Shown in pieces: positions 2,871 through 36,206 of a stretch of 64,000 nt of DNA; positions within the stretch are counted from its first letter, which is position 1, and each line of letters begins with the position of its first letter. The notes under the pieces are model-generated. The model had not been told where the DNA came from. It worked only from the letters and a program-made list of their open reading frames with translations, and did no database searches. A program made the translations under genes and the position numbers. Origin of the DNA: Anaeromyxobacteraceae bacterium (GTDB taxonomy: Bacteria; Myxococcota; Myxococcia; Myxococcales; Anaeromyxobacteraceae); NCBI GenBank assembly GCA_035636195.1, contig DASPZP010000034.1:715-64714 (forward strand). The letters run 5' to 3'.

Positions 2871-3039
2871 GCAGAGCCGAGGGCCTGGGGTTTGAAACCT
2901 TCAACTTCCTGCGAGTGAACGCGGGAGAGTTCGATTGTGATCGCGAGGCCCGGTCCTTGCGACGCGGGTCGCGGTGCCCGCCTCGCCCGACGGCCCGCAC
3001 GTCTGGGAACGCCACCCCGGCGGCGCCTGCGCGCCGCTC

Positions 3040-3490
3040 GGACGTTACCGGAGGCGCGAGCCGGAGAAGACCCTCCTCCACCAGGTCGTGCGCGAGGAGC
3101 TCGAGACGTTCCTCGCCCGCGCTCGCGAGCACAGCGCGCACGGACGCGGCCTGCCGGCCTTCGTCGAGCGGGAGCTGTGCGCCTACCTCGACTGCGGCAT
3201 CCTAGCCCGCGGCTTCGCCCGCCTCCGCTGTCCAGACTGCGGTTTCGAGCGGCTCGTCGCCTTCTCCTGTAAGGCGCACGTGTGCCCCTCCCGCGCCACC
3301 CGGCGGATGGAAGACAGCGCCGATCACTTCGTGCGCAACGTGCTTTCCGCCGGTGCCGGTGCGCCAGAGGGTCCTCTCGCTGCCGCGGCGGGTTCGCTTC
3401 CTGGCCGCCCGCCGTCCCGCCCTCGCCTCGCGCCTGCTCGCCGTCTTCACCCGCGCCGTCTTCGCCTGGCAGCGGCGGCGTTGCTCGGTC
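3040..3490 (+). mobile_element. IS91-family (Y2/HUH) transposase N-terminal remnant, frameshifted and truncated
   Basis: YRRREPEKTLLHQVVREELETFLARAREHSAHGRGLPAFVERELCAYLDCGILARGFARLRCPDCGFERLVAFSCK... is the zinc-binding N-domain pattern. It continues in another frame as PVRQRVLSLPRRVRFLAARRPALASRLLAVFTRAVFAWQRRR. The CPSC motif is degraded and the catalytic part is absent. Confidence 0.6.
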
Positions 3491-3884
3491 TGGGCGAGGG
3501 CGCCTGCGCCGGGGACGGCGCGCTGCCGTGGCCGGCCCCTCCGGAGGCGCTGCGCGCGTCGCTTCTGCCCGTCTGCCTGCGGCCGCTGGTGAGCGCGGGC
3601 GGGGCGCGCGTCCAGCTCGCCAGCTTCCGCGGCGAGCCGGCGCAGGAGCCGCTCTACTTCACGCTTGCCGCGCGCCGGCTCCATGTCGCGCTCGAGTGGC
3701 AGCGCCGCGAGGCGGCGGCCGTGGTGGTGGACCCGACGCGGGCGCCGCCCCGGCCCGAGGCGGTGAGCGCGCTCATCGCCGGGACCGCCGCGCGGGAGCG
3801 GTCGCTCGAGCTCATGTTCCTGGTCGCGCGCGGTCTGGAGACGGCGCTCGCCGGACTGGCGGACCGGTTCATCGTGCGGGCGTC

Positions 3885-5516
3885 CTAGCGCCGCCCGGTC
3901 GCCCCGCCGCCGGCGGTCAGCTCTGTGCCCCCCGGGACCGAACTGATCGGAAGCTCCACGGCGAAGCAGGCGCCTTGGCCGAGCCGGCTCTCGACGTGGA
4001 TCGCCCCCCCGAGCCGGGTAACGATCTCGCGAACGATCCACAGGCCGAGCCCCATCCCAGCGAAGCCGGAGTGCGTCACGGCCCGCTCGAAGCGCTGGAA
4101 GATCCGCTCGTGGTCATCGGGGGCGATCCCGATGCCGCCGTCTGCGACGGAGAGCCGGGCGGTGTCTCCGTTCGACCCGGCGACGACGGAGATGGGCTTG
4201 CCTTTCCCGTACTTGATCGCATTCGAGACGAGATTGCTCACGATGTGATCGAGGCCGCTCTGGTCCCATGCACCCACGACCGGCCCATCGGCCGCGATCT
4301 CGAGCGAGCAACCCGCATCGGAGGCTTCCTGCGCATGGCGCTCGGCCACCTCTCGCACCACCGCGCAGAGGTCCACTTGCTCGATGGAGACGTGGAAGCG
4401 ACCGGCCTGAATCCGGGAGACGTCGAGCAGGTTCTTCACGAGATCGGTGAGGCGACGCACCTGCCGCGAGAGAGCAGCGATCTTGCTTCGCATGAGCGCG
4501 GGAGCGTTCGGGAGCTTCGCCATCGACCGCTCGGCGCTCGCGACGAGTAGCGTGAGGCCCGTGAGTGGCGTCTTCAGCTCGTGAGCGGCGATGGCCAGAA
4601 ATTCGTCTCGTAGGCCGATGGCCTGCTGCGCCTGGCGGTACAGGCGCGCGTTCTCGATGGCCGTCCCGGCGCGTCGCGCGATCTCCTCTGCGAACGCCAG
4701 ATCTTCGGGGCCATAGCGTCGCCCGGGCTCCGAGACGACGAGCGTGATCGCGCCCAGCACGCTCTCGCGTATCACGATCGGCACGACCATCGCCGACGCC
4801 TGGAGCTCCGGCTGCCCGCTCGCCATCACTCGCGCCGCGCCCCGTGAAGCATCCGGATGCGAGCTGGCCAGGGAGTCTTCATCGCGAAGCTCGACCGCGC
4901 AGGCATCGGCGAGCTGCGGTACGACGAGTCGCGCGACGCCGGCGAGCGTCGCTTCGTAGTCGAACGAGGCGGACAGCGCCTTGCTCGCCTCCGCCAGCAG
5001 CCTGGCCCTCCCTTCCATCACCTCGGCGATGGCGCGTGCGGCGCGCTCCTCGGCGAGCACCAGCAACTCGCGGTCCGCCCTCTGCCGGGCCAGGGTGGCG
5101 CCGACCAGGCCTGCGACGCCGAGGTGCGCCTCCAGCGCGTGCGAGGGCAGCGTCCGCTCGCCCTCGTAGCCGATCACCAACGCCGTCTCGGTGCGACCGC
5201 GCACGCTGATCGGGAGGACCACGAAGGCGATGGGCGACGGGCCGTCGAGGCTCTCCATCGCCATCAAGCCGGTCTCCATGACCTGGTCGACCGCCCGCCG
5301 GAGCACCCCGCGGTCGGCCTCGGACAGGCCGCAGTCCTCGCTGCAACGCGACGGCTCGCAGAAGCAGACGATCTCGGGCGCGAAGATGCCGCGGATGAGG
5401 TCGCGGCTCTCGGCCAGGACGTCGGCGCCGCTCAGCATGTTGGCGAAATACTGGGCGGCCCGGACGAATCCCTGTGCGCACGCATCACGGCCGAGGCGGC
5501 TACCGGCGGTGGCCAT
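3885..5516 (-). CDS. GAF-domain sensor histidine kinase (HisKA + HATPase_c)
   Basis: H-box EFLAIAAHELKTPLTGL plus N/G1/G2 boxes (VSNLVSNAIKYG, DGGIGI, GMGLGLWIV). GAF-like N-terminal half with a CFCEPSRCSEDC cysteine cluster. The start lies 2 nt after the upstream stop. Confidence 0.9.
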   Translation of the reverse strand: MATAGSRLGRDACAQGFVRAAQYFANMLSGADVLAESRDLIRGIFAPEIVCFCEPSRCSEDCGLSEADRGVLRRAVDQVMETGLMAMESLDGPSPIAFVVLPISVRGRTETALVIGYEGERTLPSHALEAHLGVAGLVGATLARQRADRELLVLAEERAARAIAEVMEGRARLLAEASKALSASFDYEATLAGVARLVVPQLADACAVELRDEDSLASSHPDASRGAARVMASGQPELQASAMVVPIVIRESVLGAITLVVSEPGRRYGPEDLAFAEEIARRAGTAIENARLYRQAQQAIGLRDEFLAIAAHELKTPLTGLTLLVASAERSMAKLPNAPALMRSKIAALSRQVRRLTDLVKNLLDVSRIQAGRFHVSIEQVDLCAVVREVAERHAQEASDAGCSLEIAADGPVVGAWDQSGLDHIVSNLVSNAIKYGKGKPISVVAGSNGDTARLSVADGGIGIAPDDHERIFQRFERAVTHSGFAGMGLGLWIVREIVTRLGGAIHVESRLGQGACFAVELPISSVPGGTELTAGGGATGRR

Positions 5517-5518
5517 CG

Positions 5519-7129
5519 CTAGTTCCTCACCGCGATGGGGCGGATGTAGAGATGGTCGAGGAAGAGATCATCGAAGGCCTCCTCCATCGAGAGGTTGATC
5601 ACCTTCGCCGTCCGTCTGATCTGCGCCAGCGCCGCCTCGGCCTCGTCGGAGACGATGATGTCGAGGGCCCCCTGCAGCGCGGAGTTGCCGACCAGCTGCA
5701 CGCGCGCGGCGGGGACGGGCGGGAGGAGGCCGATGCGGGCGGCACTCTCGACGTCGAGATGCTGGCCGAAGCTCCCCGCCACGTGGACGGCGCCGAGCTG
5801 ATCGAAGCGCACGCCTGTGCGCCGAAGGAGCACCTCGATCCCGGCTGCGACCGCTGCCTTGGCGCGCTGCAAGGTGTCGATGTCGGCCTTGCTGACTGCG
5901 AACACGGCACCATCGACGGCGAGAGTCAGCGGCTCGCGGAGAATGCGGCCGCGCTCGTCGATCTCGCCCCCGGCCCGCAGGATCGCCAGCATGTCGACCA
6001 GACCCGAGCCGCAGATGCCGCGCGGTGGCGCTGACTCGAAGACCTCGCCGCGCCAGACGCCATCCGGCGAGCGCGACAGTCGATGGATGGCGCCGGGCTC
6101 GGCCCCCATGCCACAGCCGATGCCCGTCGCTTCGAAGGCTGGCCCGCCGGCGGCCGCTGTCGCCCACAGGCGCTCGCCGTCCCACAGGGCGATCTCGGAG
6201 TTCGTGCCGAAGTCGATCAGCAGCGCTGGCGCGCCGTCCTCCGCGAGTCGGCAATGGATCGCGCCCGACAACAGGTCGGACCCCACGAAGCCGCCCAGTG
6301 GTTGCACCAACTCGATCGCGGTCGAAGGGGCCAGGTTCCAAGCCTGAGCCAGCTCCGAGACATCGCCCGGCGAGCAGTCGATCGGCGCCTCCCAGCCGGA
6401 GGGGTCGAGCAGCGCCTCCGGACTCCGGCCGCTCAGCAGGGTCAGCATGGCGGAATTGCCCACGACCCGGACAATGCCCACGCCAGGGAGGGCGATACCC
6501 TCGTCCTGCGACAGATCGAGCAGCGCGCCACCGATCGCATCGACCACCCATCGCCGGAGCCGCTGTGCGGTGAGCTCCCGGCGAGCGGCGGCGTCCAGCC
6601 GCCCGATGACGTCGGCGCCCAGGCGTGCTTGCGGATTGGAGCCCGAGCGCATGGCAAGGCGCCGGCCGCTGGCGACGTCGCAGATCGCCACGGTGATCTG
6701 GGTCGTTCCCAGGTCCACGGCGACGCCCAACGGGAGTCCCCTTGCGGCGCGGCCCGGCGCGAGCGGATAAGCGGGCTGATAGGGCGGAGCGGCCGGCGCG
6801 CGCCAGGAAGAGGGGCGGGCCTGCTCGAGCACGGTGACGTCCATGTCGCCGGAAGGGATGACCTGACAGGCGAGCCGCGTCCTGGCCGCCACGGCCTCCT
6901 CGCCGAGGTGCAGCAACTCCGCGGTGGTCGGCGGCCCTGCGGTGCCTTCGTCGATGCGCACCCGGCATAGCCCGCAGGCTCCGATACCGGAGCAGGCCGA
7001 GCGCACCCGCGCGCTGCTGGCGTTCAAGATGTCGCGCAGGCTGGCGCCCGGCCGGAAGGAGATGTGGCGGGCGGCCTCGTCCCCCTCGCCTTCGAGGCGG
7101 ACCCCGATGTGGCGGACGTTGCTGGCCAT
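5519..7129 (-). CDS. Corrinoid reductive activase-like protein (2Fe-2S ferredoxin domain + ASKHA/DUF4445 domain)
   Basis: N-terminal CSGIGACGLCRV...C plant-type ferredoxin motif, followed by a long ASKHA-like region (DLGTTQITV, IDFGTNSEIAL). ATG 7129 overlaps the stop of the upstream gene. Confidence 0.85.
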   Translation of the reverse strand: MASNVRHIGVRLEGEGDEAARHISFRPGASLRDILNASSARVRSACSGIGACGLCRVRIDEGTAGPPTTAELLHLGEEAVAARTRLACQVIPSGDMDVTVLEQARPSSWRAPAAPPYQPAYPLAPGRAARGLPLGVAVDLGTTQITVAICDVASGRRLAMRSGSNPQARLGADVIGRLDAAARRELTAQRLRRWVVDAIGGALLDLSQDEGIALPGVGIVRVVGNSAMLTLLSGRSPEALLDPSGWEAPIDCSPGDVSELAQAWNLAPSTAIELVQPLGGFVGSDLLSGAIHCRLAEDGAPALLIDFGTNSEIALWDGERLWATAAAGGPAFEATGIGCGMGAEPGAIHRLSRSPDGVWRGEVFESAPPRGICGSGLVDMLAILRAGGEIDERGRILREPLTLAVDGAVFAVSKADIDTLQRAKAAVAAGIEVLLRRTGVRFDQLGAVHVAGSFGQHLDVESAARIGLLPPVPAARVQLVGNSALQGALDIIVSDEAEAALAQIRRTAKVINLSMEEAFDDLFLDHLYIRPIAVRN

Positions 7130-8166
7130 CAAACCTCGCTCTGCCCGCTCTTCCAGGCGAGGGCGGTGCGCACCATCGCAGCGATGGTGGCCTCCTGCGA
7201 TTCCGGGGGAATCTCACATCCGGAGGAGAGGATGAAGCCTCCGCGGCGGTCGAAGACGTTAAGCAGCTGGCGGGCTTCACGCTCCACGTCGGCGGCGCTG
7301 TCCGTGACGAAGCTCAGTGACTTGATGTTGCCATCGAGGCAGAGCCGGGAGTCGCCCAGGGCCTCGAGCAGCGCTTCGGGATCGACGCAGTAGTCGAAGT
7401 TGCCGATGTCGGCGCCCAGCGCCACATAGTGCGGGAGAACAGCCCCGGTCTTCCCGGCAATGTGTAACCAGTTGCCTATTGCGCCAGCCTTCGTGAAGGC
7501 GCCGAAGAGCCACTTCAGCCGCGGGCCGATCATCTCGCGGAACAGGCCGGGAGGCACCACCTCCGGGCACGCTGCCGGCTCGAAGACCAGCACGAGATGC
7601 GCCCCGGCCGCCAGCTGGGCGAGGCCGAAAGCCTTCCCCACCGCCGCAGTGTAGTCGAGCAGCTGAAGGAACCGATCGGGATCGTCGGCGGCGAGGAACA
7701 GCGCCTTCTCGATGCCCAGGAACTGCACCGCCAGGGTCATGGGCCCCTGGACGAGCCCCACCACGAGCGCCTCGTCGCCGCACGCGTCGCGCAGGCAGGT
7801 CGCCATCTCCAGCGCCATCGGCAGGCGCCCCGCCGTCCTGGGATCGGGGATGGTCAGGCGCCGGAAATCGTCGTCGGGGGCTAAGGGCGGCCGGGCCACC
7901 GCCGGATAGACGCCCCGGCGCGACTGGACCTCGCCACCGGCCGCTTCGGCTTCCAGGGTCAAGTCGAGCACGGCGAAGACCGCGTCGTAGCCGTAGCGAG
8001 CCCGCGCCTCGATCTGGCAGGCGGCAGCGACGACCCCCGAGGCCACATAGGCGTCGACGCTGCGGCCGCATGCCAGCGCCGCGTGCGCGAACACCTGCGC
8101 GATCACGGGCGGGCGATCGCAGGCCTGGAAGGCCATGGTGCGGCGAATCCGCGCGACGCTATCCAT
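7129..8166 (-). CDS. Uroporphyrinogen decarboxylase (URO-D) family methyltransferase, MtaA/CmuA-like
   Basis: 345 aa with URO-D-family layout (MAFQACDRPPV..., GFILSSGCEIP). Lies between the corrinoid protein and activase genes and overlaps the upstream gene by 8 nt. Confidence 0.8.
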   Translation of the reverse strand: MDSVARIRRTMAFQACDRPPVIAQVFAHAALACGRSVDAYVASGVVAAACQIEARARYGYDAVFAVLDLTLEAEAAGGEVQSRRGVYPAVARPPLAPDDDFRRLTIPDPRTAGRLPMALEMATCLRDACGDEALVVGLVQGPMTLAVQFLGIEKALFLAADDPDRFLQLLDYTAAVGKAFGLAQLAAGAHLVLVFEPAACPEVVPPGLFREMIGPRLKWLFGAFTKAGAIGNWLHIAGKTGAVLPHYVALGADIGNFDYCVDPEALLEALGDSRLCLDGNIKSLSFVTDSAADVEREARQLLNVFDRRGGFILSSGCEIPPESQEATIAAMVRTALAWKSGQSEV

Positions 8167-8881
8167 GGCAAACGACCGCCGGGGTCATGGACTCGAGATA
8201 CGCGACCGCGTCGAAGGCGGTCTGCCCCACATGATCGACGTTCAGGGCGGCCACCGTGCACTGCTTCAGCGCGGCACCGCCGGCCAGCACCCTGACATGA
8301 GCCAACCCCGCCCGTGCCAGGGCCGGCTTGAGTGCTCGAACCTGCGGGATGACGCTGGAGATGAGGCCGCTCACGCACACCGCCGCCGCCCCGCACTGCG
8401 CCGCCGCGCTGATGACGGCCGCCACCGACACGTCCTTGCCGCAGTCGATCACATGGAAGCGGTTACCGGTCAGGACGATCTTGAGGATGGCCTTGCCGAT
8501 GTCATGGATGTCGCCTTCCAGGACGGCCACCACCACGTTGCCGCGCACGGCCGGCAGCGCGGCATCGTCTGGAAAGAGCCGGCGGATCACGGCCATCACC
8601 GCCCGCCCGGCCAGCATGATCTCCAGGAGATTGAACTGCTCGGCGGTACACTTCTTGTCGAGCGCCGCCATGGCCTTCTCGATGCCGCCGGTGATGATGT
8701 CGACGGAGGGCATCCCCCCGCTCACGAGGTCGGCGACGATCCGGAGCGATTGCTCCCGCTCGCCCTCGGTGAGCGCCTGGACCAAGGATTCGAGTTCGGG
8801 TGGCATCGTTTCTTGCGATGATACCGCGTCCCTGGTGGGGTGCCTATCAGCGACGCTAGGCTGCGCGGAACGGTCCGACAT
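8159..8881 (-). CDS. Cobalamin-binding corrinoid protein (B12-binding domain with N-terminal helical cap)
   Basis: DxHxxG motif (GDIHDIGK) and a Rossmann-like B12-binding domain after the helical cap LVQALTEGEREQSLRIV. An alternative start is ATG 8806. Confidence 0.85.
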   Translation of the reverse strand: MSDRSAQPSVADRHPTRDAVSSQETMPPELESLVQALTEGEREQSLRIVADLVSGGMPSVDIITGGIEKAMAALDKKCTAEQFNLLEIMLAGRAVMAVIRRLFPDDAALPAVRGNVVVAVLEGDIHDIGKAILKIVLTGNRFHVIDCGKDVSVAAVISAAAQCGAAAVCVSGLISSVIPQVRALKPALARAGLAHVRVLAGGAALKQCTVAALNVDHVGQTAFDAVAYLESMTPAVVCHG

Positions 8882-8887
8882 TCGCGC

Positions 8888-11143
8888 TCAGCGGCGGCGC
8901 GGGCCGTTGAAGGGCTCCGGCTGGGGTGTCGGCGGAGGACAGCCGGGCCCGCCTGGGCTCGCCTGGAGTGCCTTGATCGACAGGCCCATCCGCTTGCGTG
9001 CGAGATCTACGGACAGGACCTTCACTCGCACCCGATCGCCGACCTTGACGATTTCGCCGGGGTCCTTGACGAAGCGGTTGGCAAGTTCGCTCACGTGCAC
9101 GAGCCCATCCTGATGAACACCCACGTCCACGAACGCCCCGAACGCAGCCACGTTGGTGACGAGGCCATTGAGCGTCATGCCTTCCTTCACGTGAGCGAGC
9201 TCGGTCACGTTGGCATCGAAGCCAACCTCGCGGAACTCCGCCCGCGGGTCTCGCCCCGGCTTCATCAGCTCCAAGACGATGTCTCGTAGCGTCGGCACAC
9301 CGACGCCGGCCTGCTCGTCCACGTACGACTGGATGTCGATGCGTTGCGCGAGCGTGCCATTCCCGACCAGGTCTCCCCGTGGCACCCCCAGGTCCTTCGC
9401 CATCCGGGTGACGACGGCGTAGCGCTCAGGGTGGACCGCGCTCGCGTCGAGCGGCTCGGTGCCATGCGGCACGCGCAGAAAGCCCGCGCACTGTTCGAAC
9501 GCCTTGCTGCCGAGCCGCGGCACCTCCTTGATGGCAGCCCGCGTCTTGAAGGGTCCGTGGCTCGCCCGGTGCGCGACGATGGCCTTGGCGAGCGCGGGAC
9601 CCAAGCCCGCCACGTAGCGCAGCAAGGTCGGCGATGCCGTGTTCAAGTTCACGCCAACCTGGTTCACGGCGCGTTCCACCACGCGGTCGAGCGACGCCGC
9701 GAGCGCCGCCTGGTCGACGTCGTGCTGGTACTGACCGACACCGATGCTCTTGGGGTCGATCTTCACCAGCTCCGCCAGCGGGTCCTGCAATCGCCTGCCA
9801 ATCGAGACGGCGCCTCGCAAGGTGACATCCAGCTCGGGAAGCTCTTCGCGCGCCAGCTCGGAGGCAGAGTACACCGACGCTCCGGCCTCGCTCACCATGA
9901 GAACCTTGACCGTGCCCGGCAGGGCAACGAGCCTGCGAATGAAGGCCTCGGTCTCCCGCCCGGCCGTCCCGTTGCCAATGGCAATCGCCGCGGGTGCTTG
10001 GGTCCGGATGAGCCCGGCGAGGGTTGCCACCGCGGTCTGCTCCTGGCCGGTATGTGGATAGATGGTCGCGAGCGCTTTCACGTCGCCCTCCGCGTTGAGC
10101 GCCGCCACCTTGCAGCCGGTCCGCAGGCCGGGGTCGATGGCGAGGACCGGGACGGACCCGAGCGGCGCCGCGAGCAGCAGCGCCTCCAGGTTCTGCGCGA
10201 AGACACGGATGGCTTCCTCGTCGGCGCGGTCCTTGAGCTTGCGCCGCAGCTCGCTCTCGAGCGAAGGCAGAAGCAGCCGCTCTCGAGCCTCGGCGAGCGC
10301 GAGGTCGAGCTCATGGGCCAGCACGGGCGGCGCGCCCTTGCGCACCACGCGTGCCCGCACTGCCGCTGCCGCATCGTCGGGCGAGATCAGAACGCGAACG
10401 CGCAGGACACCTTCGGCCTCTCCCCGCTCGGCCGCGAGTACCCGGTGCGACGGGGCGTTCATGGCGCGCTCCCGGCGGCCCAGGTGGTCGCGGTAATGGG
10501 CGAGCTCGGGGGCCGCTGATCTTCCGCGGGCCACGTCCACCGTGAGCTCACCCTTGGTTTCGAGGAGCCGACGTACCTCGGCCCGGACGTCGGCGCGCTC
10601 GGCTACCTGCTCCGCGACGATGTCCCGCGCGCCCTGGAAGACCGCGTCCAGGTCAGGCAGCTCCTTGGCAGGAGCGACGTAAGGCGCGCCGAGTGCTTCA
10701 CGGCTCTGTGCCTTCGCACCTGGCGCCTGTTCGAGAATGAGCGCGGCGAGGGGACCGAGGCCTCTCTCCCTCGCCGTCTGCGCCCGCGTCCGGCGCTTGG
10801 GCTTGTAGGGCAAGTAAACGTCTTCCAGCTCGGTGAGCGTGGCGGCGGCGCCGACCGCACGCGCGAGCTCGGGAGTCAGGATGTTCTGCTCACGCAGCGA
10901 CTCGAGGATGCTGGTCCGGCGGGCTTCGCGGGCATCTACCCGGGCGGCGTGGTCGTGGATGCGCTGGATCGCCCCGTCGTCGAGGCCGCCCGTGACCTCT
11001 TTACGGTAGCGCGCGACGAAGGGGACGGTGGCCCCGCCGTCGAGCAGTTCGAGCGTGCGGGCCACCGCGGCGGGCGGAAGGGAGAGCTCGCGCGCGACCA
11101 TGGTGGCGCGGTCCGCAACGGCTGCGTGGGTCATGGGAAACAC
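8888..11143 (-). CDS. tex: Tex-like transcription accessory protein (S1 domain RNA-binding protein)
   Basis: 751 aa. N-terminal LLDGGATVPFVARYRKEVTGGLDD signature, YqgF/HhH middle, C-terminal S1 domain (GLVTNVAAFGAFVDVGVHQDGLVHVSE). Confidence 0.9.
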   Translation of the reverse strand: MFPMTHAAVADRATMVARELSLPPAAVARTLELLDGGATVPFVARYRKEVTGGLDDGAIQRIHDHAARVDAREARRTSILESLREQNILTPELARAVGAAATLTELEDVYLPYKPKRRTRAQTARERGLGPLAALILEQAPGAKAQSREALGAPYVAPAKELPDLDAVFQGARDIVAEQVAERADVRAEVRRLLETKGELTVDVARGRSAAPELAHYRDHLGRRERAMNAPSHRVLAAERGEAEGVLRVRVLISPDDAAAAVRARVVRKGAPPVLAHELDLALAEARERLLLPSLESELRRKLKDRADEEAIRVFAQNLEALLLAAPLGSVPVLAIDPGLRTGCKVAALNAEGDVKALATIYPHTGQEQTAVATLAGLIRTQAPAAIAIGNGTAGRETEAFIRRLVALPGTVKVLMVSEAGASVYSASELAREELPELDVTLRGAVSIGRRLQDPLAELVKIDPKSIGVGQYQHDVDQAALAASLDRVVERAVNQVGVNLNTASPTLLRYVAGLGPALAKAIVAHRASHGPFKTRAAIKEVPRLGSKAFEQCAGFLRVPHGTEPLDASAVHPERYAVVTRMAKDLGVPRGDLVGNGTLAQRIDIQSYVDEQAGVGVPTLRDIVLELMKPGRDPRAEFREVGFDANVTELAHVKEGMTLNGLVTNVAAFGAFVDVGVHQDGLVHVSELANRFVKDPGEIVKVGDRVRVKVLSVDLARKRMGLSIKALQASPGGPGCPPPTPQPEPFNGPRRR

Positions 11144-11210
11144 ACTAGCGCTTTCGCCTCCTGAAGCCGGAGGAGGCTGTCGCTTGAAGAGGCGCGTCAG
11201 GTATTCGTAG

Positions 11211-11471
11211 GTGAACCTCCAGATTCCCGAACGGAGGCGCTGCAGGGCGTCGAGCTCAGCGAGCCGCGTTCACGCGGTGCGCTACCACGGCTCTTCGCGC
11301 CACACGCCGGGCTCCGCAGCCGCGTCGTCCCCGAGTGACAAGTGGAAGGAAGCGATCGACCGTATGGAGGGGGTTGGGACGGAGGTCCCTGGCGGCAAGA
11401 AGCTGGCGGCCCTCCTCGACTACCTGGAGCGCACCCACGGGCCGGACAGCCCGGCACCCGCCAAGAAGTAA
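11211..11471 (+). CDS. Small hypothetical ORF (possibly a decayed cytochrome-c-like fragment)
   Basis: 86-aa ORF with a GTG start. Only the tail KWKEAIDRMEGVGTEVPGGKKLAALLDYLERTHG looks protein-like. No CxxCH motif. Confidence 0.25.
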   Translation: MNLQIPERRRCRASSSASRVHAVRYHGSSRHTPGSAAASSPSDKWKEAIDRMEGVGTEVPGGKKLAALLDYLERTHGPDSPAPAKK

Positions 11472-11600
11472 TACACCAGACCGGCGCCGCCGCCTCGTCC
11501 GGGGGAACAAACTCCGCTTACGCCCCGGACTGACCGTGCCCGCCCACGGTCGGTGCAGAACCTTGTGCTCCTCGGCGTTCGCAGAGACGGAGGTACGGCA

Positions 11601-12071
11601 ATGTCGACTCGGATCGGTCTCCGACAACTGCGGTCGTGGGCCGTCCTACTTGGATTAGGCACCGCGCTTGGCGCATCGGCCCAATCGAAGCAGCCCGAGC
11701 CACCGAAGGTGCCGTTCGGAAATCAGCCCTGTCAGTCGCTCTCGTCGAACGACCAGACTGCGTTGAAGATGTTCACCCCCGTCCACGCGAACGCCTCCCG
11801 CGCGCCCGGCACGCTGACGTTCGACAACGTATGCGACTACGTCCACGGCGGGACCCGGCAGGTGCAGGTCGGTTACATGACGAAGGGCGACTACGACCTC
11901 AACAGCCACGGAAACCGGAGTACGGAGAAGCAGGCCCCCGGTGACCTCCCCGGCGGGTTCTACGACGCACAGGGCGGGCTCTGGTTCGCCAAGGGCGGCT
12001 ACTACGTTGTGGTGGCCGGGAAGAGCGCGTTGCGAGAGCCCGTGGCGCGACTGATCGCAGGGAAGCTGTAA
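11601..12071 (+). CDS. Secreted hypothetical protein
   Basis: ATG 11601 is preceded by GGAGG. Signal peptide MSTRIGLRQLRSWAVLLGLGTALGASAQS. Globular-looking remainder with no recognised motif. Confidence 0.55.
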   Translation: MSTRIGLRQLRSWAVLLGLGTALGASAQSKQPEPPKVPFGNQPCQSLSSNDQTALKMFTPVHANASRAPGTLTFDNVCDYVHGGTRQVQVGYMTKGDYDLNSHGNRSTEKQAPGDLPGGFYDAQGGLWFAKGGYYVVVAGKSALREPVARLIAGKL

Positions 12072-12275
12072 CTTGAATACTTGGTCTCGCTGTCTCCACC
12101 AGCGTCACTGCTGTGGAGTCCTCCGGGCACCAACCGCAGGTTTACGTCCGTTTGCATCCGCCTGGAGCCGTTCTTCCGGGCCCACCATGACTGGAAGCTC
12201 AGGTTCTGGGAGAACGCCAAAGCCTCGCTCTGGGCGGAGGCCGTCATGTCGGCGCCGTGACGGTAGGCGCTCAGG

Positions 12276-12428
12276 TCAACACGGGGCGCGGCGAGGACTT
12301 ACGGAGATCCGGTGATGCTCCAACTCGCCGCGGCGGCACAGCGAGTACACCGTCGCGGTCGATACGCGGAGGCGCTCGGCGACGGCGCCCACGGTGAGCT
12401 CGACCTCTCCGAAACGGGCTCGGAGCAC
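12276..12428 (-). CDS. Excisionase/AlpA-type helix-turn-helix DNA-binding protein (short, possibly truncated)
   Basis: LTVGAVAERLRVSTATVYSLCRRGELEHHRIS matches the HTH_17/excisionase pattern. Lies just left of att copy 2. The GTG 12428 start is a guess. Confidence 0.45.
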   Translation of the reverse strand: MLRARFGEVELTVGAVAERLRVSTATVYSLCRRGELEHHRISVSPRRAPC

Positions 12429-12577
12429 AGCCTGGACCGTGGCACCAAGGGTGGCACCAAACTTCGGGCTACTTGCTGCGGCTTGCTGCGGCCGGTGCGG
12501 GTCGGGCTTGTCGCCCAATGCAGTAGTTGCGGGCCCTTGCGGCCGCGTGCGGCCCGGTGCGGGAGGTGTTCTTCGCC

Positions 12578-12622
12578 TTCCCAAGCTGAGGGTCGCCGGT
12601 TCGAATCCGGTTTCCCGCTCCA
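12578..12622 (+). repeat. tRNA-Gly(CCC) 3-prime half fragment, att-like copy 2
   Basis: Identical to 318-362. Followed by the same hairpin plus TGGGCAACC x2 module as copy 1. No D arm or 5-prime anticodon stem upstream. Confidence 0.75.
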
Positions 12623-12768
12623 AGTAAATCCAGGGGTTCCGACGCGAGGCGGGGCCCCTTGGCTCTGGGCAACCGTCTGGGCAACCTTTTTTCGTGATCG
12701 CGTTCGCTCCCGGCCGGCTGAGCGGGTTGCGCGTCTACCGCGCTCGCGTTCACGATTTGTGCGGTGCC

Positions 12769-13563
12769 TCTCGCCGGCGGCAGGCCGATGGAGACCACGT
12801 TCCGCGCGCGCGCCAGGCGCTCGGGCACCATGTGCTGGTAGAGCCGGGTGACGCTCTCCTCGCTGTGGCCGAGGACCTGCGCGAGGAGCCCGATGTCCGG
12901 CTGCCCAGCGAGGAAGTGAGACGCGAACGTGTGGCGCAGCGTGTGAGGCCCGCCGCGGAGACCCGCAGCCTTCCGCGCGCGGTCGAACTGCAGCTTCGGC
13001 CAGCAGGTCCAGCGCTCGCCGGTGCTGCACGGGAACACCCACTTCTCCGACCGGCGCGGCCCCGTGAGTTATGGCCAGAGCGCGTCGGAGATCGGCACCT
13101 CGCGAGGCTCGTTGTCCTTGGGCTGCCACTCGTCCGACGGCCAGATCAGGACCTGGCGCCCGGCGACGTCGATCTGCGGCCACGTGAGCGCCAGCGCCTC
13201 GCCCTTGCGCATGCCGGTGTTGAGGAGGCAGACGACGATGGGGAGCAGCTCGGGCGACTCGTCCCTGACCGCGGCGAGGAGCAGGTCGATCTCCTCGCGC
13301 GTCCAGGCGCGCACGCGCCGCTCGCTCTCCTCAAGTAGCCGGATGTGAACGTCCGCGATCGCCACCTTGCGCTCGCGCGCGGCGAAGTTGAGCACGATGC
13401 GCAGCACGCGCAGCTCGTTGTTGATCGAGACGTTCTTGAGCCCATCCTCGCGGCGCCTCCGCTTGTAGTCGTCGATGGCTCGCGCGTGGATCTCGGTGCG
13501 ACTCGAACCGCCGGATGCGGATCCGCACGTCCGGTGGTGTGGGAGGGGAGTAGCTGGACGAAC
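12769..13563 (-). pseudogene. Tyrosine recombinase (phage-type integrase) with an in-frame TAA nonsense codon
   Basis: Core-binding part ...IHARAIDDYKRRRREDGLKNVSINNELRVLRIVLNFA... and catalytic part ...LLNTGMRKGEALAL..., HTLRHTFASH, LGHSEESVTRLYQH are in one frame. That frame is interrupted at ALWP*LTGPRR (stop at 13069-13071). The N-terminus looks short. Confidence 0.8.
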
Positions 13564-13653
13564 CGGCTACCCCCTATCCCGATCACCTCTGCGCCTCACT
13601 CCGGCACAGGGCTACTCGTCGGTTTGAGGCCGAGCGCGAAGCGCGAGGCTTCG

Positions 13654-14436
13654 CTAGTGATTCTTGAGCGCGTTGCAAAGGCTGAGCGCCAATGCCTTCC
13701 GGCTTGGGTTCCCGGCGAGTTGGCTGCTGTTTGCAATGCCAGTGCAGACATCGCTGAGAGGCGTCTGAACGGCTGGTGCGACGACGGCGGGGTCATTCGT
13801 GAAAATGGTGCCGTCAGCGAGCTCGGGGCGGATGGGGCCGAAGAGGTTAAAGACGGTCCCACCCTGGCTCCAGGTGCCCTTTCGGTCATGGCACTCGGCG
13901 CAACCCAAGTTCTTAGCGGGGGACATCGTGTCGGCAACCACCTTGAAGCTAACCGCGGTGTCGACATCCGCCATCTTCTGGACGAATGGGAACGCTGCAA
14001 CCTCAGGGTCGTCCGACCCGGTCTTCTTGCTCACATCCTCGCCGATTTCGATGTGATTGATGACGCCCCCCGTCGTGCACAAGCTGAAGGACGGCCGGAA
14101 CCGCTGATCCTGAGCAATAGAGCCCGCGCAGCTGAAGATCACCCGCGGAAGCCTGGTGCCGTCTCTCAGCGTGCACCCTGGTTGCGCGCTTTCCTCGCTC
14201 AACGTCCAGGTGACGTAGCAGCCCGAAGGAACGCACGCCACAGCGTCGGCGACTGTCCTGGGTGTCGGGATCGAGGCCAGACAGGTGTCAAATGAGGAGA
14301 GACTGTTACCCGGAGCGGTCAAAGCGGCGGAATTGGTGCTCTCCGTGGCGTCGGGTGCCTGCCCCCCGCACGCCAGCAGCGAAGACATCACACCCGCGAA
14401 AGCGACATTCATCACATCTTTCACGAACAACTTCAT
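13654..14436 (-). CDS. Cysteine-rich lipoprotein with a single c-type heme motif (CAECH)
   Basis: ATG 14436 is preceded by GGAGGA. Lipobox LLACGG, one CxxCH (CAECH) and more than 10 further Cys. Sits in a visibly lower-GC patch. Confidence 0.7.
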   Translation of the reverse strand: MKLFVKDVMNVAFAGVMSSLLACGGQAPDATESTNSAALTAPGNSLSSFDTCLASIPTPRTVADAVACVPSGCYVTWTLSEESAQPGCTLRDGTRLPRVIFSCAGSIAQDQRFRPSFSLCTTGGVINHIEIGEDVSKKTGSDDPEVAAFPFVQKMADVDTAVSFKVVADTMSPAKNLGCAECHDRKGTWSQGGTVFNLFGPIRPELADGTIFTNDPAVVAPAVQTPLSDVCTGIANSSQLAGNPSRKALALSLCNALKNH

Positions 14437-15157
14437 TTCGTCCTCCCAACAGCTTACCCCGAGGGTCACTCGGAGGCAAAGGGACTGAGCTCTTTCACTA
14501 CCCCGGACTCCTCCTGTCGTCTCTTGCCTCCTTGCTCTCGAATGCACCGACGGCAAACACAGCGATACGGGCGACCGAGGGTACGGACCAGCACAGCCGG
14601 CCGCGTTGCACTGTTGGTTCAATGCTTAACGCTTGCTTCCTTCCGATCGAGGTCAGCACCGTGACTGCCCGCCGAAGAAGGCCACGGCAAGGTGCACAGC
14701 TCGTGAGGCGCGGCGTTCGGGAACTGATATGGCCTAGGAGCAGACGACGCAGCTCCTGCGCGGCAGAAATGAAGGGGTGCCTGCTAGTGGGGACCGCGCG
14801 CGGGTTTGGCAATCACGATTGGATGATGACCCAATTCGTGCGATCCGGATTGGGTCGCGGCGCGTGCAAGAGACGGCGGCTCAGGACGCCAGGCGCTCCC
14901 TGAAGGGTCATCGCGTCAGATCGCTGCTCCCCGCGAGTCCCCATGACCAGCGCGATCCCGTGACGAGCTCCTCGGGCCGTCCCACGGGAGGCGTTGTGCA
15001 TCGACGCCTACCACGCGTGCACGGTCGGTGGAACGCTGAAGTGCTGCCAGGGCGCCTGCGACGTGAGCGGCGTCTGCCCGCCGCCGACGGGGTAGCGGCT
15101 CCGGGGCCAACTCCGGCAGCATCTGGACGCCGGTTCAGCGGGTGCTAGGATGCCCGC

Positions 15158-15283
15158 GTGGTCGTCCTCGGCATCGATCCCGGCTCGCGCCGCTGCGGCT
15201 ACGGGATCGTGTCGCGATCCGGGTCCGCCCTGGCCCGCCTCGACTCGGGCGTGCTCGTGCCCGGCCCGCTCGCCACGGCCTAG
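15158..15283 (+). pseudogene. ruvC: RuvC Holliday-junction resolvase N-terminal stub (about 42 codons)
   Basis: VVVLGIDPGSRRCGYGIVSRSGSALARLDSGVLVPGPLATA* matches the RuvC N-terminus (LGIDPGSxxxGYG with the catalytic Asp). TAG at 15281-15283. Only RLGRLL follows in frame before the similarity ends. Confidence 0.6.
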
Positions 15284-15687
15284 CGCCTCGGGCGGCTCTT
15301 ACGGCGAGCGCGGCGAGGTCGCGTTCGTCCCCGCGAGCGCACGACGGCCTCCTCGAGGCCCATGTCCCGCCTGGCGCTGAAGAAGAGCGGCGCCCCGTAG
15401 GCGGTCAGCGTCGGACGCGGATCCTTCGAGTGGGTTGCCATCCTCCCGAGATCATAGCGGCTGGACGGCACCTTGGCTCCGGCCGCCCAGACCACTCCGG
15501 TCGAGGCGACCGGTCTCGTCAGTTGGCCTTCACTCGCAGTACCTCATGAGCAGGCCGCCGCCGGCGATGCGTTGGGCAACCTTTGGGCAAACCTTTTTCC
15601 CCGGAAACCGCGTTCATCCCCTCCCAACCGCTGCAACCGCCCTCGTGATTTCAGGAGCTTGGCTCCTCGCCATCCCCGGGCTGCACA

Positions 15688-15732
15688 TTCCCAAGCTGAG
15701 GGTCGCCGGTTCGCATCCGGTTTCCCGCTCCA
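15688..15732 (+). repeat. tRNA-Gly(CCC) 3-prime half fragment, att-like copy 3
   Basis: Same 45-mer with one mismatch (C at 15714 in the T loop). The downstream flank differs from copies 1 and 2. A TGGGCAACC/TGGGCAAACC pair lies about 100 bp upstream (15573-15593). Confidence 0.7.
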
Positions 15733-15866
15733 GTTTCCGAGGTGATGACGAGGGCTTCCGGGGCGACCCGGGAGCCCTTCGTCTTTCCGGCTCCCTCGAA
15801 AACCTTGCCCGGTATCTCGCGAGCCTCGCGTTCTCGGCGAAGTCACAAAGGATTCCGCCGTGACCT

Positions 15867-16454
15867 TCAGCTTCCGAGAATCGAGGCCCGCCTCCCCGCG
15901 CCGGGAACACAGACTCGCGGGCGGCGGAGCGAGCGGCGCGCCGCGAGGGGGCCGATGCTGGCGATCAGCCCGGCCGCAGCCGCCGCGGCCAGGATCGACC
16001 AGGAACCAGCGGCACCGGGCTTGACCGTCATGAGACCCAGGATCCCGACGCCTAGGGCGATGCGGAGTCGGAGCGACGCGGTCAGCGCCTGGCCGGACCG
16101 GAGCGGGAGCTCCGACGGTGGCTCGGCCGCGAGGGCTGCGCGCAGCCGCCTCGTGCGCCGGAGCGAGACGACGCTGGCCACGGCCATCCCGACGAGCCCG
16201 ACGAAGGCGCTGACGAGCCAGGGCTGAGGCCCCCAGCTCACGGCCATCATCCAGATCCCGGACGCGAGCGTTGCGGACATGGGGATGGGACCGAGGCGCC
16301 AGGGGAGCGCGAGCAGGCTCATCCAGACGCGGGCGTCCGCGGGCGTCGCCGCCCGCTGGAGCCTTCCGAGCGAGACGGTCTCGATCGCGATCGTCGCGAA
16401 GATGCCGACCGCGCCGATGACGTGGACGAAGACGATGAACGGATAGGCGGTCAT
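15867..16454 (-). CDS. Integral membrane protein (about 5 TM, DUF2269-like by recall)
   Basis: MTAYPFIVFVHVIGAVGIFATIAIE... with repeated hydrophobic spans. ATGA overlap with the upstream gene at 16451-16454. Confidence 0.65.
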   Translation of the reverse strand: MTAYPFIVFVHVIGAVGIFATIAIETVSLGRLQRAATPADARVWMSLLALPWRLGPIPMSATLASGIWMMAVSWGPQPWLVSAFVGLVGMAVASVVSLRRTRRLRAALAAEPPSELPLRSGQALTASLRLRIALGVGILGLMTVKPGAAGSWSILAAAAAAGLIASIGPLAARRSLRRPRVCVPGAGRRASILGS

Positions 16455-34685: not shown

Positions 34686-36206
34686 ATGAACCTGCTCGCC
34701 GAACAGCTCCGGATCAGCGCGATGCAGGTGGAAGCCACTCGCTTCCAGCGGTTCGCGCGGGACGCTCCCATCGGCATCGTCTTCATCAGCAGCGACGGCC
34801 GGGTGCAGTTCGCGAATGACGAGTACCTGCGGATCATCGATCGCTCGCGCGAGGAGTTCGAGGCGGAGCGGTTTCGCCCGGGTCCGGGCGGGGTCCCCAG
34901 ATGGTTGCGCCCCGAGCTCGGCGCGCGACACGAGAGCGAATACGTCCGGAGCGACGGTACCCGGGTCCCGATCCTCGTCGGCCTTTCGAGTCAACCGGAC
35001 GGCCTGGCGGCGTTCGTCATCGATCTGACCTCCGAGAAGTCGGCGCAGCTCGCGCGGCAGGAGAGCGAGGAGCGCTACCGCGCGATCGCCGAGAAGCTCG
35101 AGGAGGCGGATCGCCGCAAGAACGAGTTCTTGAGCGTGCTCTCGCACGAGTTGCGGAACCCGCTCGCGCCGATCCGGAACGCGCTGCATCTCCTCGCCCG
35201 CGCGCCGGACGACCTCGCGCGAACGGCGCGGGCTCGCGACGTGATCGCCCGACAGTTCGGGCACCTCTCGCGGCTGGTGGACGACCTCCTCGACATCACC
35301 CGCATCACGCGCGGACGGATCGAGCTCCATCGCGAGCCGCTCGATCTCTCGCGGCTCGTGCGCGACACCGTCGAGGACCATCGCGGCGAGCTCGAGGCCG
35401 CGGGGCTCCGCCTCCTCCTGGAGGTGCCGACCGCGGTCGTCCCGATCGACGGCGACGCGACCCGGCTCGCCCAGGTCCTCGGGAACCTGCTCGCCAACTC
35501 GGCCAAGTTCACGGCGCGCGGCGGCACGGTCGCGGTGCGCATTGGGGAGGAACCTGGGGGCGCCGCGCTCATCGAGGTCCGCGACACGGGCGAGGGCATC
35601 GAGGCCGACGTGCTCTCGCGCCTCTTCCAGCCGTTCTCCCAGGCGGACCGCAGCCTCGCGCGCTCCCGCGGCGGGCTGGGCCTCGGGCTCACGGTCGTGA
35701 AGGGCCTCGTCGAGCTGCACGGCGGAACGGTCGCCGTGACGAGCGGCGGCCGCGGCGCCGGGACGAAGGTCGTGGTCCGCCTGCCGCTCGCTCCGGCGCT
35801 ACCGCCGCCCGGGCCACGCGCCGACACCGCCCCGTCCATCGCGCACGTCCTGATCGTCGAGGACAACGTCGACGCGGCCGAGACGCTGCGGGAGGCGCTG
35901 AAGCTCGAGGGGATGGCAGTCACGGTCGCGTATGACGGCGATGCCGGCCTCGATGCGGCCCGGCGGAACGTGCCGGACCTCGTCATCTGCGACATCGGCC
36001 TGCCTGGAGACCTCGACGGCTACGGCGTCGCGCGCGCGATCCGGGCGGACCCGGCGCTGCGCCACACGCCGCTCGTGGCGCTGACCGGCTACGCGGGGCC
36101 GGAGGATCAGGCGCGCGCGCTGGAGGCGGGGTTCGACCGGCACCTGGCGAAGCCGATCGGGATCGAGGACCTGCTGCACGCGATCGCTCCCCTCACGCGG
36201 CACTGA
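34686..36206 (+). CDS. Hybrid sensor histidine kinase (PAS-HisKA-HATPase_c-REC)
   Basis: H-box FLSVLSHELRNPLAPI, N/G boxes (LLANSAKFT, DTGEGI, GLGLGLTVV) and a C-terminal receiver (VLIVEDNVDAAE...DIGLPGDLDGY...KPI). Confidence 0.9.
   Translation: MNLLAEQLRISAMQVEATRFQRFARDAPIGIVFISSDGRVQFANDEYLRIIDRSREEFEAERFRPGPGGVPRWLRPELGARHESEYVRSDGTRVPILVGLSSQPDGLAAFVIDLTSEKSAQLARQESEERYRAIAEKLEEADRRKNEFLSVLSHELRNPLAPIRNALHLLARAPDDLARTARARDVIARQFGHLSRLVDDLLDITRITRGRIELHREPLDLSRLVRDTVEDHRGELEAAGLRLLLEVPTAVVPIDGDATRLAQVLGNLLANSAKFTARGGTVAVRIGEEPGGAALIEVRDTGEGIEADVLSRLFQPFSQADRSLARSRGGLGLGLTVVKGLVELHGGTVAVTSGGRGAGTKVVVRLPLAPALPPPGPRADTAPSIAHVLIVEDNVDAAETLREALKLEGMAVTVAYDGDAGLDAARRNVPDLVICDIGLPGDLDGYGVARAIRADPALRHTPLVALTGYAGPEDQARALEAGFDRHLAKPIGIEDLLHAIAPLTRH

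Follow-up and report, generated by a model that had tools for sequence, protein, structure and literature searches.

The stretch of DNA considered here, hereafter the window, comprises 64,000 nucleotides of contig DASPZP010000034.1 from an Anaeromyxobacteraceae bacterium, and the element under study is a block of four intact open reading frames (ORFs) on its minus strand (3885-8881). The four ORFs encode a corrinoid protein (CP), a methyltransferase of the URO-D family (MT), a RACo-type activase and a GAF histidine kinase. Listed from the 5' end of the block, they are:

8159..8881, minus strand: corrinoid protein, with Pfam domains B12-binding_2 and B12-binding
7129..8166, minus strand: URO-D-fold, MtaA-like methyltransferase of 345 aa, with Pfam domain URO-D
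5519..7132, minus strand: RACo-type activase, with Pfam domains Fer2, Raco_middle and RACo_C_ter
3885..5516, minus strand: soluble histidine kinase of 543 aa, with Pfam domains GAF, HisKA and HATPase_c

An earlier note on this DNA had described the four genes as one tightly coupled operon. Its coordinates, strand and four domain identities were all recovered by an ORF check and by searches of Pfam and NCBIfam, and the junctions read as it had given them: CP and MT overlap by 8 nt (8159-8166), the stop codon of the MT gene and the ATG of the RACo gene have 1 nt in common (TGATG, 7131-7127), and RACo and the kinase are spaced by 2 nt. The same holds for the 6-nt distance between the ATG at 8881 and the stop codon of tex (8888-11143, with ten Tex-type Pfam domains), which ends at 8888. 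The G+C content at third codon positions (GC3) of the four ORFs is 0.86-0.88, as is usual for real genes in sequence of about 69% G+C.

The order of these genes is not peculiar to the window. An alignment of the MT subfamily served as query against GTDB, each species being represented by one genome, and relatives turned up in 202 stretches, the best 80 of which were analysed; 85 loci entered the comparison with the window proteins. Most carriers are metagenome-assembled genomes (MAGs), and the starts of ORFs in relatives were estimated from alignments. The best 80 loci fall into at least 15 phylum-level groups, archaea included. Bacterial carriers are found among the Myxococcota, Desulfobacterota sensu lato, Nitrospirota, Chloroflexota (Chloroploca and Oscillochloris included), Acidobacteriota, Actinomycetota and Campylobacterota, among the Alpha-, Beta- and Gammaproteobacteria (Acetobacteraceae, Sulfuricella and Chromatiales), and among the Bacillota, Planctomycetota, Thermotogota, Fibrobacterota and Elusimicrobiota; the archaeal carriers belong to Methanocellaceae, Methanospirillum and Promethearchaeota. 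With X standing for the signalling protein encoded last, a complete CP-MT-RACo-X cassette is present in 60 of the 85 loci. Seven others are of the type CP-MT-X, five have RACo or Fer2 fused to X, and the rest are cut by contig ends. The survey across phyla that the earlier note had called for thus returned a recurrent order. The median spacings at the three junctions in relatives are -4, 0 and +8 nt, that is, translational coupling is conserved.

In almost every locus the gene that follows RACo or MT begins with a match to residues ~15-151 of the window kinase, the segment that we call N-GAF. A profile hidden Markov model (HMM) of N-GAF matches 81 of the 85 loci, and the four that it misses all end before that position; N-GAF is therefore present in every testable MT-seeded locus (76/76). 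In the reciprocal test one N-GAF subfamily (sub-alignment A9) was compared with JGI metagenome contigs, which gave 49 loci. Wherever at least 1.7 kb of upstream sequence was available, N-GAF lay directly behind RACo/Fer2 (29 loci) or MT (two loci), for a total of 31/31, and CP and MT were both present in all 23 loci with at least 3.4 kb upstream. One short contig (L120) has no RACo within its 725 upstream bases. The earlier note had allowed that its proposal would fall if the kinase were syntenic with the corrinoid genes in no other genome; in both directions of the search, synteny was found in all testable loci. That four unrelated genes lie side by side by chance in a compact genome, or that the block is an annotation artefact, is an explanation to which we give virtually no weight. 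It can appeal to a generally high gene density only, and the order recurs in 60 complete and all testable partial copies, in bacteria and archaea, with conserved start/stop overlaps; chance adjacency is therefore refuted.

The proteins that carry N-GAF differ in what follows it. Among 78 members, Pfam domains found behind N-GAF are HATPase_c (48), HisKA (42), Response_reg (14), GGDEF (11), HD_5 (HD-GYP; seven), SpoIIE (four), HisKA_2 (three) and HWE_HK (two), and PAS and GAF repeats are also frequent there. A conserved N-terminus of about 150 residues that is joined to variable outputs is thus the signature of a sensory input domain.

The contigs of full-length homologues of the kinase, which are 53-100% identical to it, were also inspected. 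The same gene order is seen, as far as the contig reaches, around P0034 (55% identity), P0018 (64%), P0010 (95%), P0012 (65%) and P0007 (92%), the last two on partial contigs. On complete contigs of relatives the start/stop overlaps are visible and the flanks are unrelated, and flanks differ even between cassettes whose proteins are 94-95% identical. The closest relatives of the window cassette come from Anaeromyxobacteraceae MAGs. The earlier note had raised the possibility that the operon is read through from tex. As a lasting feature this did not survive the comparison: tex lies upstream in no relative, not even in copies with 94-95% identical proteins, and so read-through from tex is not conserved and the cassette relocates as a block. 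We propose to define the cassette as CP - URO-D MT - (RACo or Fer2) - N-GAF protein, with AQY / VLESGF / FLP / LLNxYLAxAGL as the motifs of its N-GAF; the window copy falls within this definition. In one 95%-identical relative (L134; 17932-19061 and 11933-13920), cupredoxin/COX2-like, MCP and split hybrid-cluster (Prismane) genes lie near the cassette, and none of these is found near the window copy.

Within the kinase gene we distinguish the following features:

5067..5516, minus strand: N-GAF, the cassette-specific input domain, residues 1-150 (AlphaFold2 and Foldseek; synteny)
5331..5366, minus strand: cysteine cluster C51-F-C53-EPSR-C58-SED-C62, in strand beta1 and the following loop of N-GAF, a lower-confidence loop in the model
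4737..4958, minus strand: degenerate second GAF domain (GAF2), residues 187-260 (Pfam, C-terminal part of GAF models only)
3945..4610, minus strand: kinase core, HisKA (residues 303-372; Pfam, 9.5e-13) and HATPase_c (residues 418-524; 1.5e-29)

In the AlphaFold2 model of the whole protein (mean pLDDT 84.9) N-GAF is followed by a long helix, the degenerate GAF2, HisKA and HATPase_c. The H box reads HELKTP, with His312 at 4581-4583, and the N, G1, F and G2 boxes are intact; the columns HELKTP, NAIKYG, DGGIGI, FERA and GMGLGL are invariant in an alignment of orthologues (A1). By these marks the protein is predicted to be a classical HisKA kinase. A lookup of its exact sequence returned no record.

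No Pfam family covers residues 1-150 of the window kinase, PF01590, PF13185 and PF13492 being the families concerned. The AlphaFold2 model of N-GAF (pLDDT 90.6, pTM 0.86) has the arrangement alpha-alpha-beta-alpha-beta-beta-beta and then a long helix. Its best Foldseek matches are the GAF domains of NifA, NLH1, KdpD, CodY and cyanobacteriochromes (TM 0.6-0.68, 10-18% identity), and the top 25 matches are all GAF domains (TM 0.47-0.68, 9-21% identity). On the strength of the model we are confident in assigning the N-terminal domain a GAF fold and in placing it in a new GAF subfamily. We had also considered a photoglobin, which is ruled out by the alpha/beta GAF fold. When 1.84 billion representative proteins were searched, the family comprised 216 clusters of 50% identity with an E-value cut-off of 1e-30, and 407 with one of 1e-10; N-GAF begins at residue 1-15, in proteins of 130-1900 aa, for nearly all of the top 150 matches listed. 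A homologue search with the N-GAF profile A6 returned only seven proteins. The family motifs are AQY (Q22, Y23), VLESGF (V79, G83, F84), FLP (P102), the VGH/VGY strand, L128, L132 and R144, and the best-conserved positions lie on helix 1, at the alpha3-beta2 junction and on the C-terminal signalling (exit) helix. The window N-GAF retains Q22, Y23, V79, G83, P102, L128, L132 and R144 and has Leu at the near-invariant F84. In a Phycisphaerales MAG (L069, 12616-14409) N-GAF is spread over two overlapping ORFs by a frameshift, which is either that of a pseudogene or an assembly error.

Two descriptions of the kinase in the earlier note need amendment in the light of these comparisons. It had pointed to an unusual cysteine cluster. 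The cluster is indeed there, but CFCEPSRCSEDC is not a family-wide feature, being confined to an Anaeromyxobacteraceae-like clade: C51 and C53 reach 90% conservation or more in that clade only, and C58 and C62 vary even within it. Other lineages have VAFxxR (VAF/AFG) in its place, which rules out the cluster as a conserved sensing element. The earlier note had also called the protein a GAF sensor kinase. That it is a kinase stands, but the GAF seen by Pfam is a decaying second GAF, and the domain coupled to the corrinoid genes is the unannotated N-terminal one. Matches to Pfam GAF models in the window kinase span residues 206-289 only. Most orthologues (~580 aa) have about 50 extra alignment columns in GAF2, where the window kinase is internally deleted, and GAF2 is wholly absent from P0038 and from P0010, a 397-aa, 95% identical soil relative (L134/L135) in which N-GAF joins the dimerization and histidine phosphotransfer (DHp) helix directly. 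The Pfam-visible GAF is therefore ruled out as the coupling domain, as it is partly deleted in the window and missing from P0010 and P0038.

One homologue, P0035 (L001, 10001-11743; 53% identity), has no corrinoid genes within 10 kb on a contig of 2.6 Mb. It has lost the near-invariant Q22-Y23 (the site reads AARLL) and C53 too, which could make it an uncoupled paralogue. In L001 a PaaK-like AMP-binding gene is situated near the P0035 kinase, and in L003/L004 such a gene directly follows the kinase.

We turn now to the activase, which is 537 aa long from TTG 7132 or 536 aa from ATG 7129. Its Fer2 domain occupies residues 22-93, its middle domain residues 135-297 and its ASKHA domain residues 303-530; PF00111, PF17651 and PF14574 all score above their cut-offs, and the RACo structures 3zyy/4c1n in the PDB are matched at 1.5e-63. 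It is thus predicted to be a standard three-domain activase. In two relatives (L012 and L014) a single frame can be read through from a full RACo into N-GAF. In six others (L040, L044, L053, L086, L092 and L093) the frame was read through from Fer2 and a linker of ~20 aa into N-GAF; these proteins have a [2Fe-2S] domain of ~100 aa with its C-x5-C-x2-C...C ligands intact and are without ASKHA. For a further six (L085, L094, L095, L116, L123 and L132) the sequence of Fer2 followed by N-GAF was deduced from adjacent tblastn matches only. In all, at least 12 loci appear to have N-GAF fused in frame, two to a full RACo and at least ten to Fer2. These fusions imply that in several lineages the signalling protein is physically tied to the cobalt-reducing machinery, the Fer2 domain being the part that gives the electron to cobalt. 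The variant without ASKHA implies either that reduction is ATP-independent or that a RACo is encoded elsewhere. Cassettes without RACo were seen in Actinomycetota, Promethearchaeota, an uncultured archaeon, Syntrophomonadaceae and a deltaproteobacterium.

The fusions bear on the idea that the cassette is an oxidant sensor, in which MT and RACo would keep the corrinoid cycling between Co(I) and CH3-Co(III), O2, N2O or NO would oxidise Co(I), and N-GAF would report Co(II)- or Co(III)-CP. Cob(I)alamin is oxidised by O2 and N2O, as is known from MetH and from the inactivation of corrinoid enzymes, and we know of no dedicated N2O sensor. If the idea were right, the device would warn anaerobes of agents that poison all of their corrinoid enzymes. 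The sensor protein of at least 10 loci carries a fused redox domain, Fer2, and the hosts are mostly anaerobes or microaerophiles of soil, peat and sediment, including lineages of denitrifiers and N2O reducers (Anaeromyxobacteraceae and Sulfuricella). Such a sensor has no obvious need for MT, however, yet MT is the most conserved part of the cassette, and nos and nor genes were not seen as conserved neighbours in the flank scans. We therefore hold an oxidant sensor to be improbable.

The longest ORF for CP encodes 240 aa from ATG 8881, and 215 aa are encoded from ATG 8806. Its true start is probably ATG 8806, because orthologues are 212-217 aa long and align only from residue 26-30. Pfam finds PF02310 (1.7e-14) and PF02607 (2e-6), and the GDIHDIGK motif to which the earlier note had drawn attention is present, its DxHxxG being D124-H126-G129 at 8495-8512. 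CP thus has both a B12-binding Rossmann domain (DxHxxG...SxL...GG) and an N-terminal four-helix cap (PF02607). In an alignment of 76 family members LDxKCTxEQFNLLEIML, LEGDvHDlGK, SGL and AGGAALKQ are conserved. The cap motif KCTxEQFNLLEIML takes the place of the usual F/Y...F(L/V)P, and Cys78 on the cap helix (8648-8650; Cys53 when counted from ATG 8806) is at least 90% conserved in cassette CPs, whereas MtaC, MttC and MtmC have Phe or Tyr at this position. It is possible that this residue is an upper-face ligand of the cobalt or a reactive thiol. Of the solved structures, 1y80, MttC 7xcn and MtaC 2i2x are nearest, each a corrinoid protein from a methyltransferase system, and CP stays below the curated NCBIfam cut-offs for such proteins (TIGR02370, 93.3 against 215.3; MtaC NF040655, 83 against 420).

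Modules of the B12-binding_2 and B12-binding type also serve as photoreceptors, as in CarH and photoglobin-B12 (PMC8717448), and three structures, PDB 8j2w, 8j2x and 8j2y, are among the structure matches of CP. One could therefore imagine a light sensor, in which photolabile CH3-Co(III)-CP is read by N-GAF, light breaks its Co-C bond to leave Co(II), and RACo by reduction and MT by re-methylation restore the dark state. This would explain the single methyltransferase, which is the case in every locus, and the cassette does occur in phototrophic Chloroflexales (Chloroploca and Oscillochloris). It is, however, commonest in anaerobes of dark habitats (methanogens, syntrophs, and Nitrospirota of rock fractures and sediments), and CP scores far better against corrinoid proteins of methyltransferases than against the CarH family (NF052513, 19.7 bits, E=4e-4, cut-off 400). 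We consider a light sensor to be quite improbable.

The methyltransferase has the URO-D (TIM-barrel) fold (PF01208, E=2.7e-56). It scores 120.9 bits with TIGR01463 (MtaA/CmuA), below the cut-off of 235.4, and among solved structures MtaA comes closest (4ay7; 1.8e-16 for the single sequence, 5e-37 for a profile). Kinship with the MT1 enzymes of O-demethylases was rejected, as CdmB (9rui) is a remote match at 6e-6, far behind MtaA. MT is 46-62% identical to relatives in other phyla and in archaea; in a comparison with proteins of other phyla its identity is 52-63%, and it is far better conserved than the kinase. WLHIAG and SSGCEIPPE are invariant in the subfamily. In the alignment with 4ay7, LHICG is replaced by LHIAG and PGCGI by SGCEI, which places a putative metal site at His235 (7462-7464), Ala237 and Cys317 (7216-7218)-Glu318, with Ala237 replacing a Cys of MtaA. 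His235, Cys317 and Glu318 are invariant in the subfamily and Ala237 is nearly so. The thiol-activating zinc site His-x-Cys...Cys is accordingly absent, the residues being His-Ala-Cys. His-Cys-Cys marks S- and Se-methyltransferases, and loss of a Cys is typical of O-methyltransferases (PMC10418091). Because His-Ala-Cys replaces the usual His-Cys-Cys, there is a weak hint that the methyl donor of MT could be O-linked.

Known systems for corrinoid-dependent methyl transfer have two methyltransferases, MT1 and MT2. The cassette has one URO-D gene per locus, and no pair of MT1 and MT2 was found at the loci. All-versus-all clustering of 3623 ORFs of the loci gave CP, MT and RACo/X (with their antisense shadows) as the only widely shared clusters, and Pfam scans of the adjacent ORFs, 47 downstream and 50 upstream, did not list MttB, MtaB or pterin-binding families among those seen most often. 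A Response_reg domain occurs in the next downstream ORF on the same strand in seven of 47 loci. The earlier note had named, as a finding that would count against it, a second methyltransferase and a response regulator conserved just outside the four genes; neither is conserved in the flanks scanned. Around the window copy, too, its statement that no second methyltransferase and no cognate regulator lie nearby agrees with our results, the Pfam matches of the neighbours being PagL, radical SAM, IS91 and integrase fragments. Neither Pfam searches of 20 neighbouring ORFs nor tblastn with three receiver queries revealed a receiver domain closer than ~35.8 kb, and within ~27 kb of the cassette there is none that would make it a paired two-component system. 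The "wrecked" receiver that the earlier note had placed nearby was not found by the same searches. The sole receiver matches in the window are at 35844-36203 and 61537-61869 (plus strand); they have no evident link to the cassette, and either may be part of unrelated systems. Orphan kinases are common in Myxococcota. In two loci (alignment A5) a MEDS domain (PF14417, "methanogen/methylotroph DcmR sensory domain") is encoded just upstream of the cassette; MEDS is a further predicted sensor family linked to methyl metabolism.

It is against this background that a metabolic explanation has to be weighed, according to which CP, MT and RACo are the core of an ordinary methyl-transfer pathway whose partner enzyme, a substrate-specific methyltransferase or a methyl acceptor enzyme, is encoded elsewhere, and the kinase is a co-located regulator with an N-GAF that binds a substrate or product directly. 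All of the enzyme domains are of the catalytic type, and small molecules are the usual ligands of GAF domains. Kinases of the MsmS/RdmS type beside mts genes regulate corrinoid methyltransferase genes in M. acetivorans. Pathways with scattered parts are documented (PMC8604678), and a metabolic role is assumed for known UroD-type clusters that have no folate methyltransferase (PMC10418091). On the other hand, many loci have GGDEF, HD-GYP (that is, cyclic di-GMP, or c-di-GMP) or PP2C outputs, which would be unusual for the regulator of one operon, and a partner methyltransferase is found in none of ~130 flanks. The Fer2~N-GAF and RACo~N-GAF fusions would have no rationale if N-GAF bound only a metabolite, and the 1:1 association is stricter than that of usual pairs of regulator and operon. 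We judge the metabolic explanation to be unlikely, though it is the main rival of the reading that follows.

The reading that we favour, and hold with somewhat better than even confidence, is that the four genes form a self-contained signalling device, as opposed to a piece of a catabolic pathway, in which N-GAF reads the state of the cobalt on CP. The obligate and coupled association, the swapped outputs and the fusions to Fer2 and RACo together make it the simplest explanation that the triad of CP, MT and RACo is itself the sensory apparatus. The earlier note had suggested that the co-translated kinase may read the corrinoid state, and the support that this suggestion has gained is that of comparative genomics. 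P0035 offers a natural control that supports the favoured reading, in that the one orthologue found with no corrinoid genes nearby has lost Q22-Y23.

Under the favoured reading CP would be the signal-carrying subunit. MT would write or erase the methyl group on its cobalt, Co(I) + CH3-X <-> CH3-Co(III) + X-, and RACo, with ATP and its [2Fe-2S] cluster, would return oxidised Co(II) to Co(I). N-GAF would dock to CP and tell its states apart, for example CH3-Co(III) from Co(II); the long helix would carry the signal to the core of DHp and catalytic and ATP-binding (CA) domains and alter autophosphorylation, and the phosphate would pass to an unlinked response regulator. The stimulus would be a balance of "reductive methylation", our best guess being a small methyl donor together with low-potential reducing power and ATP. 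One methyltransferase would be enough because such a system would equilibrate the carrier with a donor/acceptor pair, or re-methylate it, and would sustain no flow of carbon. We infer the contact between CP and the GAF domain, the cobalt state that is "on" and the stimulus; as no fusion of CP to N-GAF was seen, the contact is deduced solely by way of the RACo and Fer2 fusions.

Several observations weigh against the favoured reading. Regulators are commonly encoded beside the operons they control. Seven loci (L023, L041, L052, L075, L076, L081 and L083) have the order CP-MT-X without any RACo, and among the loci examined there is no CP~N-GAF fusion. The conservation of MT, at ~50% between bacteria and archaea, would fit the role of a housekeeping enzyme too. 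No RNA run contains the window locus, the matching runs being soil DNA metagenomes only. The zinc-site argument for an O-linked donor depends on a rule of thumb quoted in PMC10418091. Finally, the genes for MtqC, MtqA/RamQ and MttB-type enzymes of E. limosum lie in separate clusters (PMC8604678), and with pathway genes so dispersed, the missing second methyltransferase is by itself not diagnostic.

As to the surroundings of the window cassette, a single promoter-like site was found between the tex stop and ATG 8806:

8846-8818, minus strand: promoter-like site TAGGCA-17-TATCAT (consensus match only)

It is the sole sigma-70-type match in 3400-9300, where 0.1 is expected in shuffled sequence, and it lies inside the 81-nt gap. 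No terminator-like site was found. On the 3' side of the kinase follow an IS91-type transposase fragment, an ORF with a weak PAS match, a radical-SAM gene and a PagL gene. The transposase fragment (ORF 2974-3888, plus strand) has an IS91-type zinc-binding domain (PF14319, 8.8e-11) and no match to a catalytic domain; it converges on the kinase gene, with a 4-nt overlap at the stop codon of the latter, and is probably what is left of a mobile element, marking a rearrangement where the cassette ends on its 3' side. Upstream of tex, the stretch 11200-16450 is nearly without ORFs of high GC3, its G+C content falls to 0.63 at 14-15 kb, and it contains a phage-integrase fragment at 13069-13407 (minus strand). 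Ten more ORFs in this stretch and around the cassette have no Pfam match. The stretch looks like a decayed integrated element.

To our knowledge, no role other than that of catabolic machinery is on record for corrinoid methyltransferase triads, and B12 sensors are known only as switches that respond to light or to B12 availability. In a full-text literature search, with most subscription journals outside its reach, we found no description of the cassette. We give an even chance to the further proposition that it represents a new class of prokaryotic input, in which the enzyme-written methyl or redox state of a protein-bound corrinoid is read by a dedicated GAF domain. If so, bacteria and archaea of at least 15 phylum-level groups, more than 200 species in all, would use this input to drive outputs of the kinase, c-di-GMP or PP2C type, and the principle of sensing, a cofactor state written by enzymes on a carrier protein, would be new. 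The cassette might then be a gauge of methyl donor, of low-potential reducing power or of oxidants that poison corrinoids (N2O and O2). A function would also come into view for genes annotated as "uroporphyrinogen decarboxylase family protein", "corrinoid protein" and "ASKHA domain protein", which sit in non-methylotrophs of soil, peat and sediment (Anaeromyxobacteraceae, Sulfuricella, Nitrospirota, Chloroflexota, syntrophs and Methanocellaceae), and metagenome surveys should not take cassette genes as a sign of methylotrophy. The new GAF subfamily has a testable partner, and the four soluble proteins would make a tractable in vitro system in which to study the perception of methyl donors, reducing power or corrinoid-inactivating gases by anaerobes.

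The cassette joins two known kinds of system, those for corrinoid-dependent methyl transfer and B12-based sensors. MtaABC, MtbA/MtbC and MtqA/MtqC with RamA/RACo likewise have a DxHxxG corrinoid protein with a four-helix cap, an MtaA-like methyltransferase of the URO-D family and a [2Fe-2S]/ASKHA activase. Unlike these, the cassette has one methyltransferase, with His-Ala-Cys rather than His-Cys-Cys, misses all NCBIfam equivalog cut-offs, is obligately followed by a signalling protein and is found in many lineages that are not methylotrophic. The type 1 mlp clusters (Kountz & Balskus 2023, PMC10418091) are similar in their UroD-type, MtaA-like enzymes, their corrinoid protein, their Ram/RACE activase, their lack of a folate methyltransferase and their wide distribution in anaerobes. 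They differ in having two or three Mlps (an Mlp2 and an Mlp3 at the least) with an invariable His-Cys-Cys, in being mostly from Firmicutes, in showing no conserved gene order, in lying near genes of S/Se metabolism and in having no reported signalling partner. Compared with this published description, the cassette is ruled out as a type 1 mlp cluster on gene content and zinc ligands (a single UroD gene and His-Ala-Cys).

Among sensors, MsmS and RdmS of Methanosarcina acetivorans are likewise kinases beside corrinoid methyltransferase genes and are linked to the regulation of these; they have multiple GAF and PAS domains. Their redox sensing relies on a heme or thiol that sits in the GAF domain of the kinase itself, and their target is the transcription of mts genes; we are aware of no evidence for a corrinoid protein being read by them. 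N-GAF, in contrast, has no Pfam GAF match, and its cysteines are not conserved across the family. CarH, AerR/PpaA and photoglobin-B12 (PMC8717448) resemble the cassette in that a B12-binding_2 + B12-binding module is coupled to histidine kinase, GGDEF or SpoIIE outputs and in that the state of a tetrapyrrole cofactor is the signal. These systems join their B12 module to a DNA-binding or globin domain, by fusion or as a partner, and dispense with both methyltransferase and activase, whereas the B12 protein of the cassette is separate, resembles catalytic corrinoid proteins and is accompanied by enzymes that cycle the cobalt by way of Co(I), and its partner is an alpha/beta GAF domain and not a globin. 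Two further systems, which share no sequence kinship with the cassette, work in a manner similar to that proposed for it. In PII-GlnD-NtrB a small carrier receives a covalent mark from a sensor enzyme and a kinase reads the mark, and in MetH Co(II) is rescued by a one-electron reduction that is pulled by methylation, with flavodoxin and S-adenosylmethionine.

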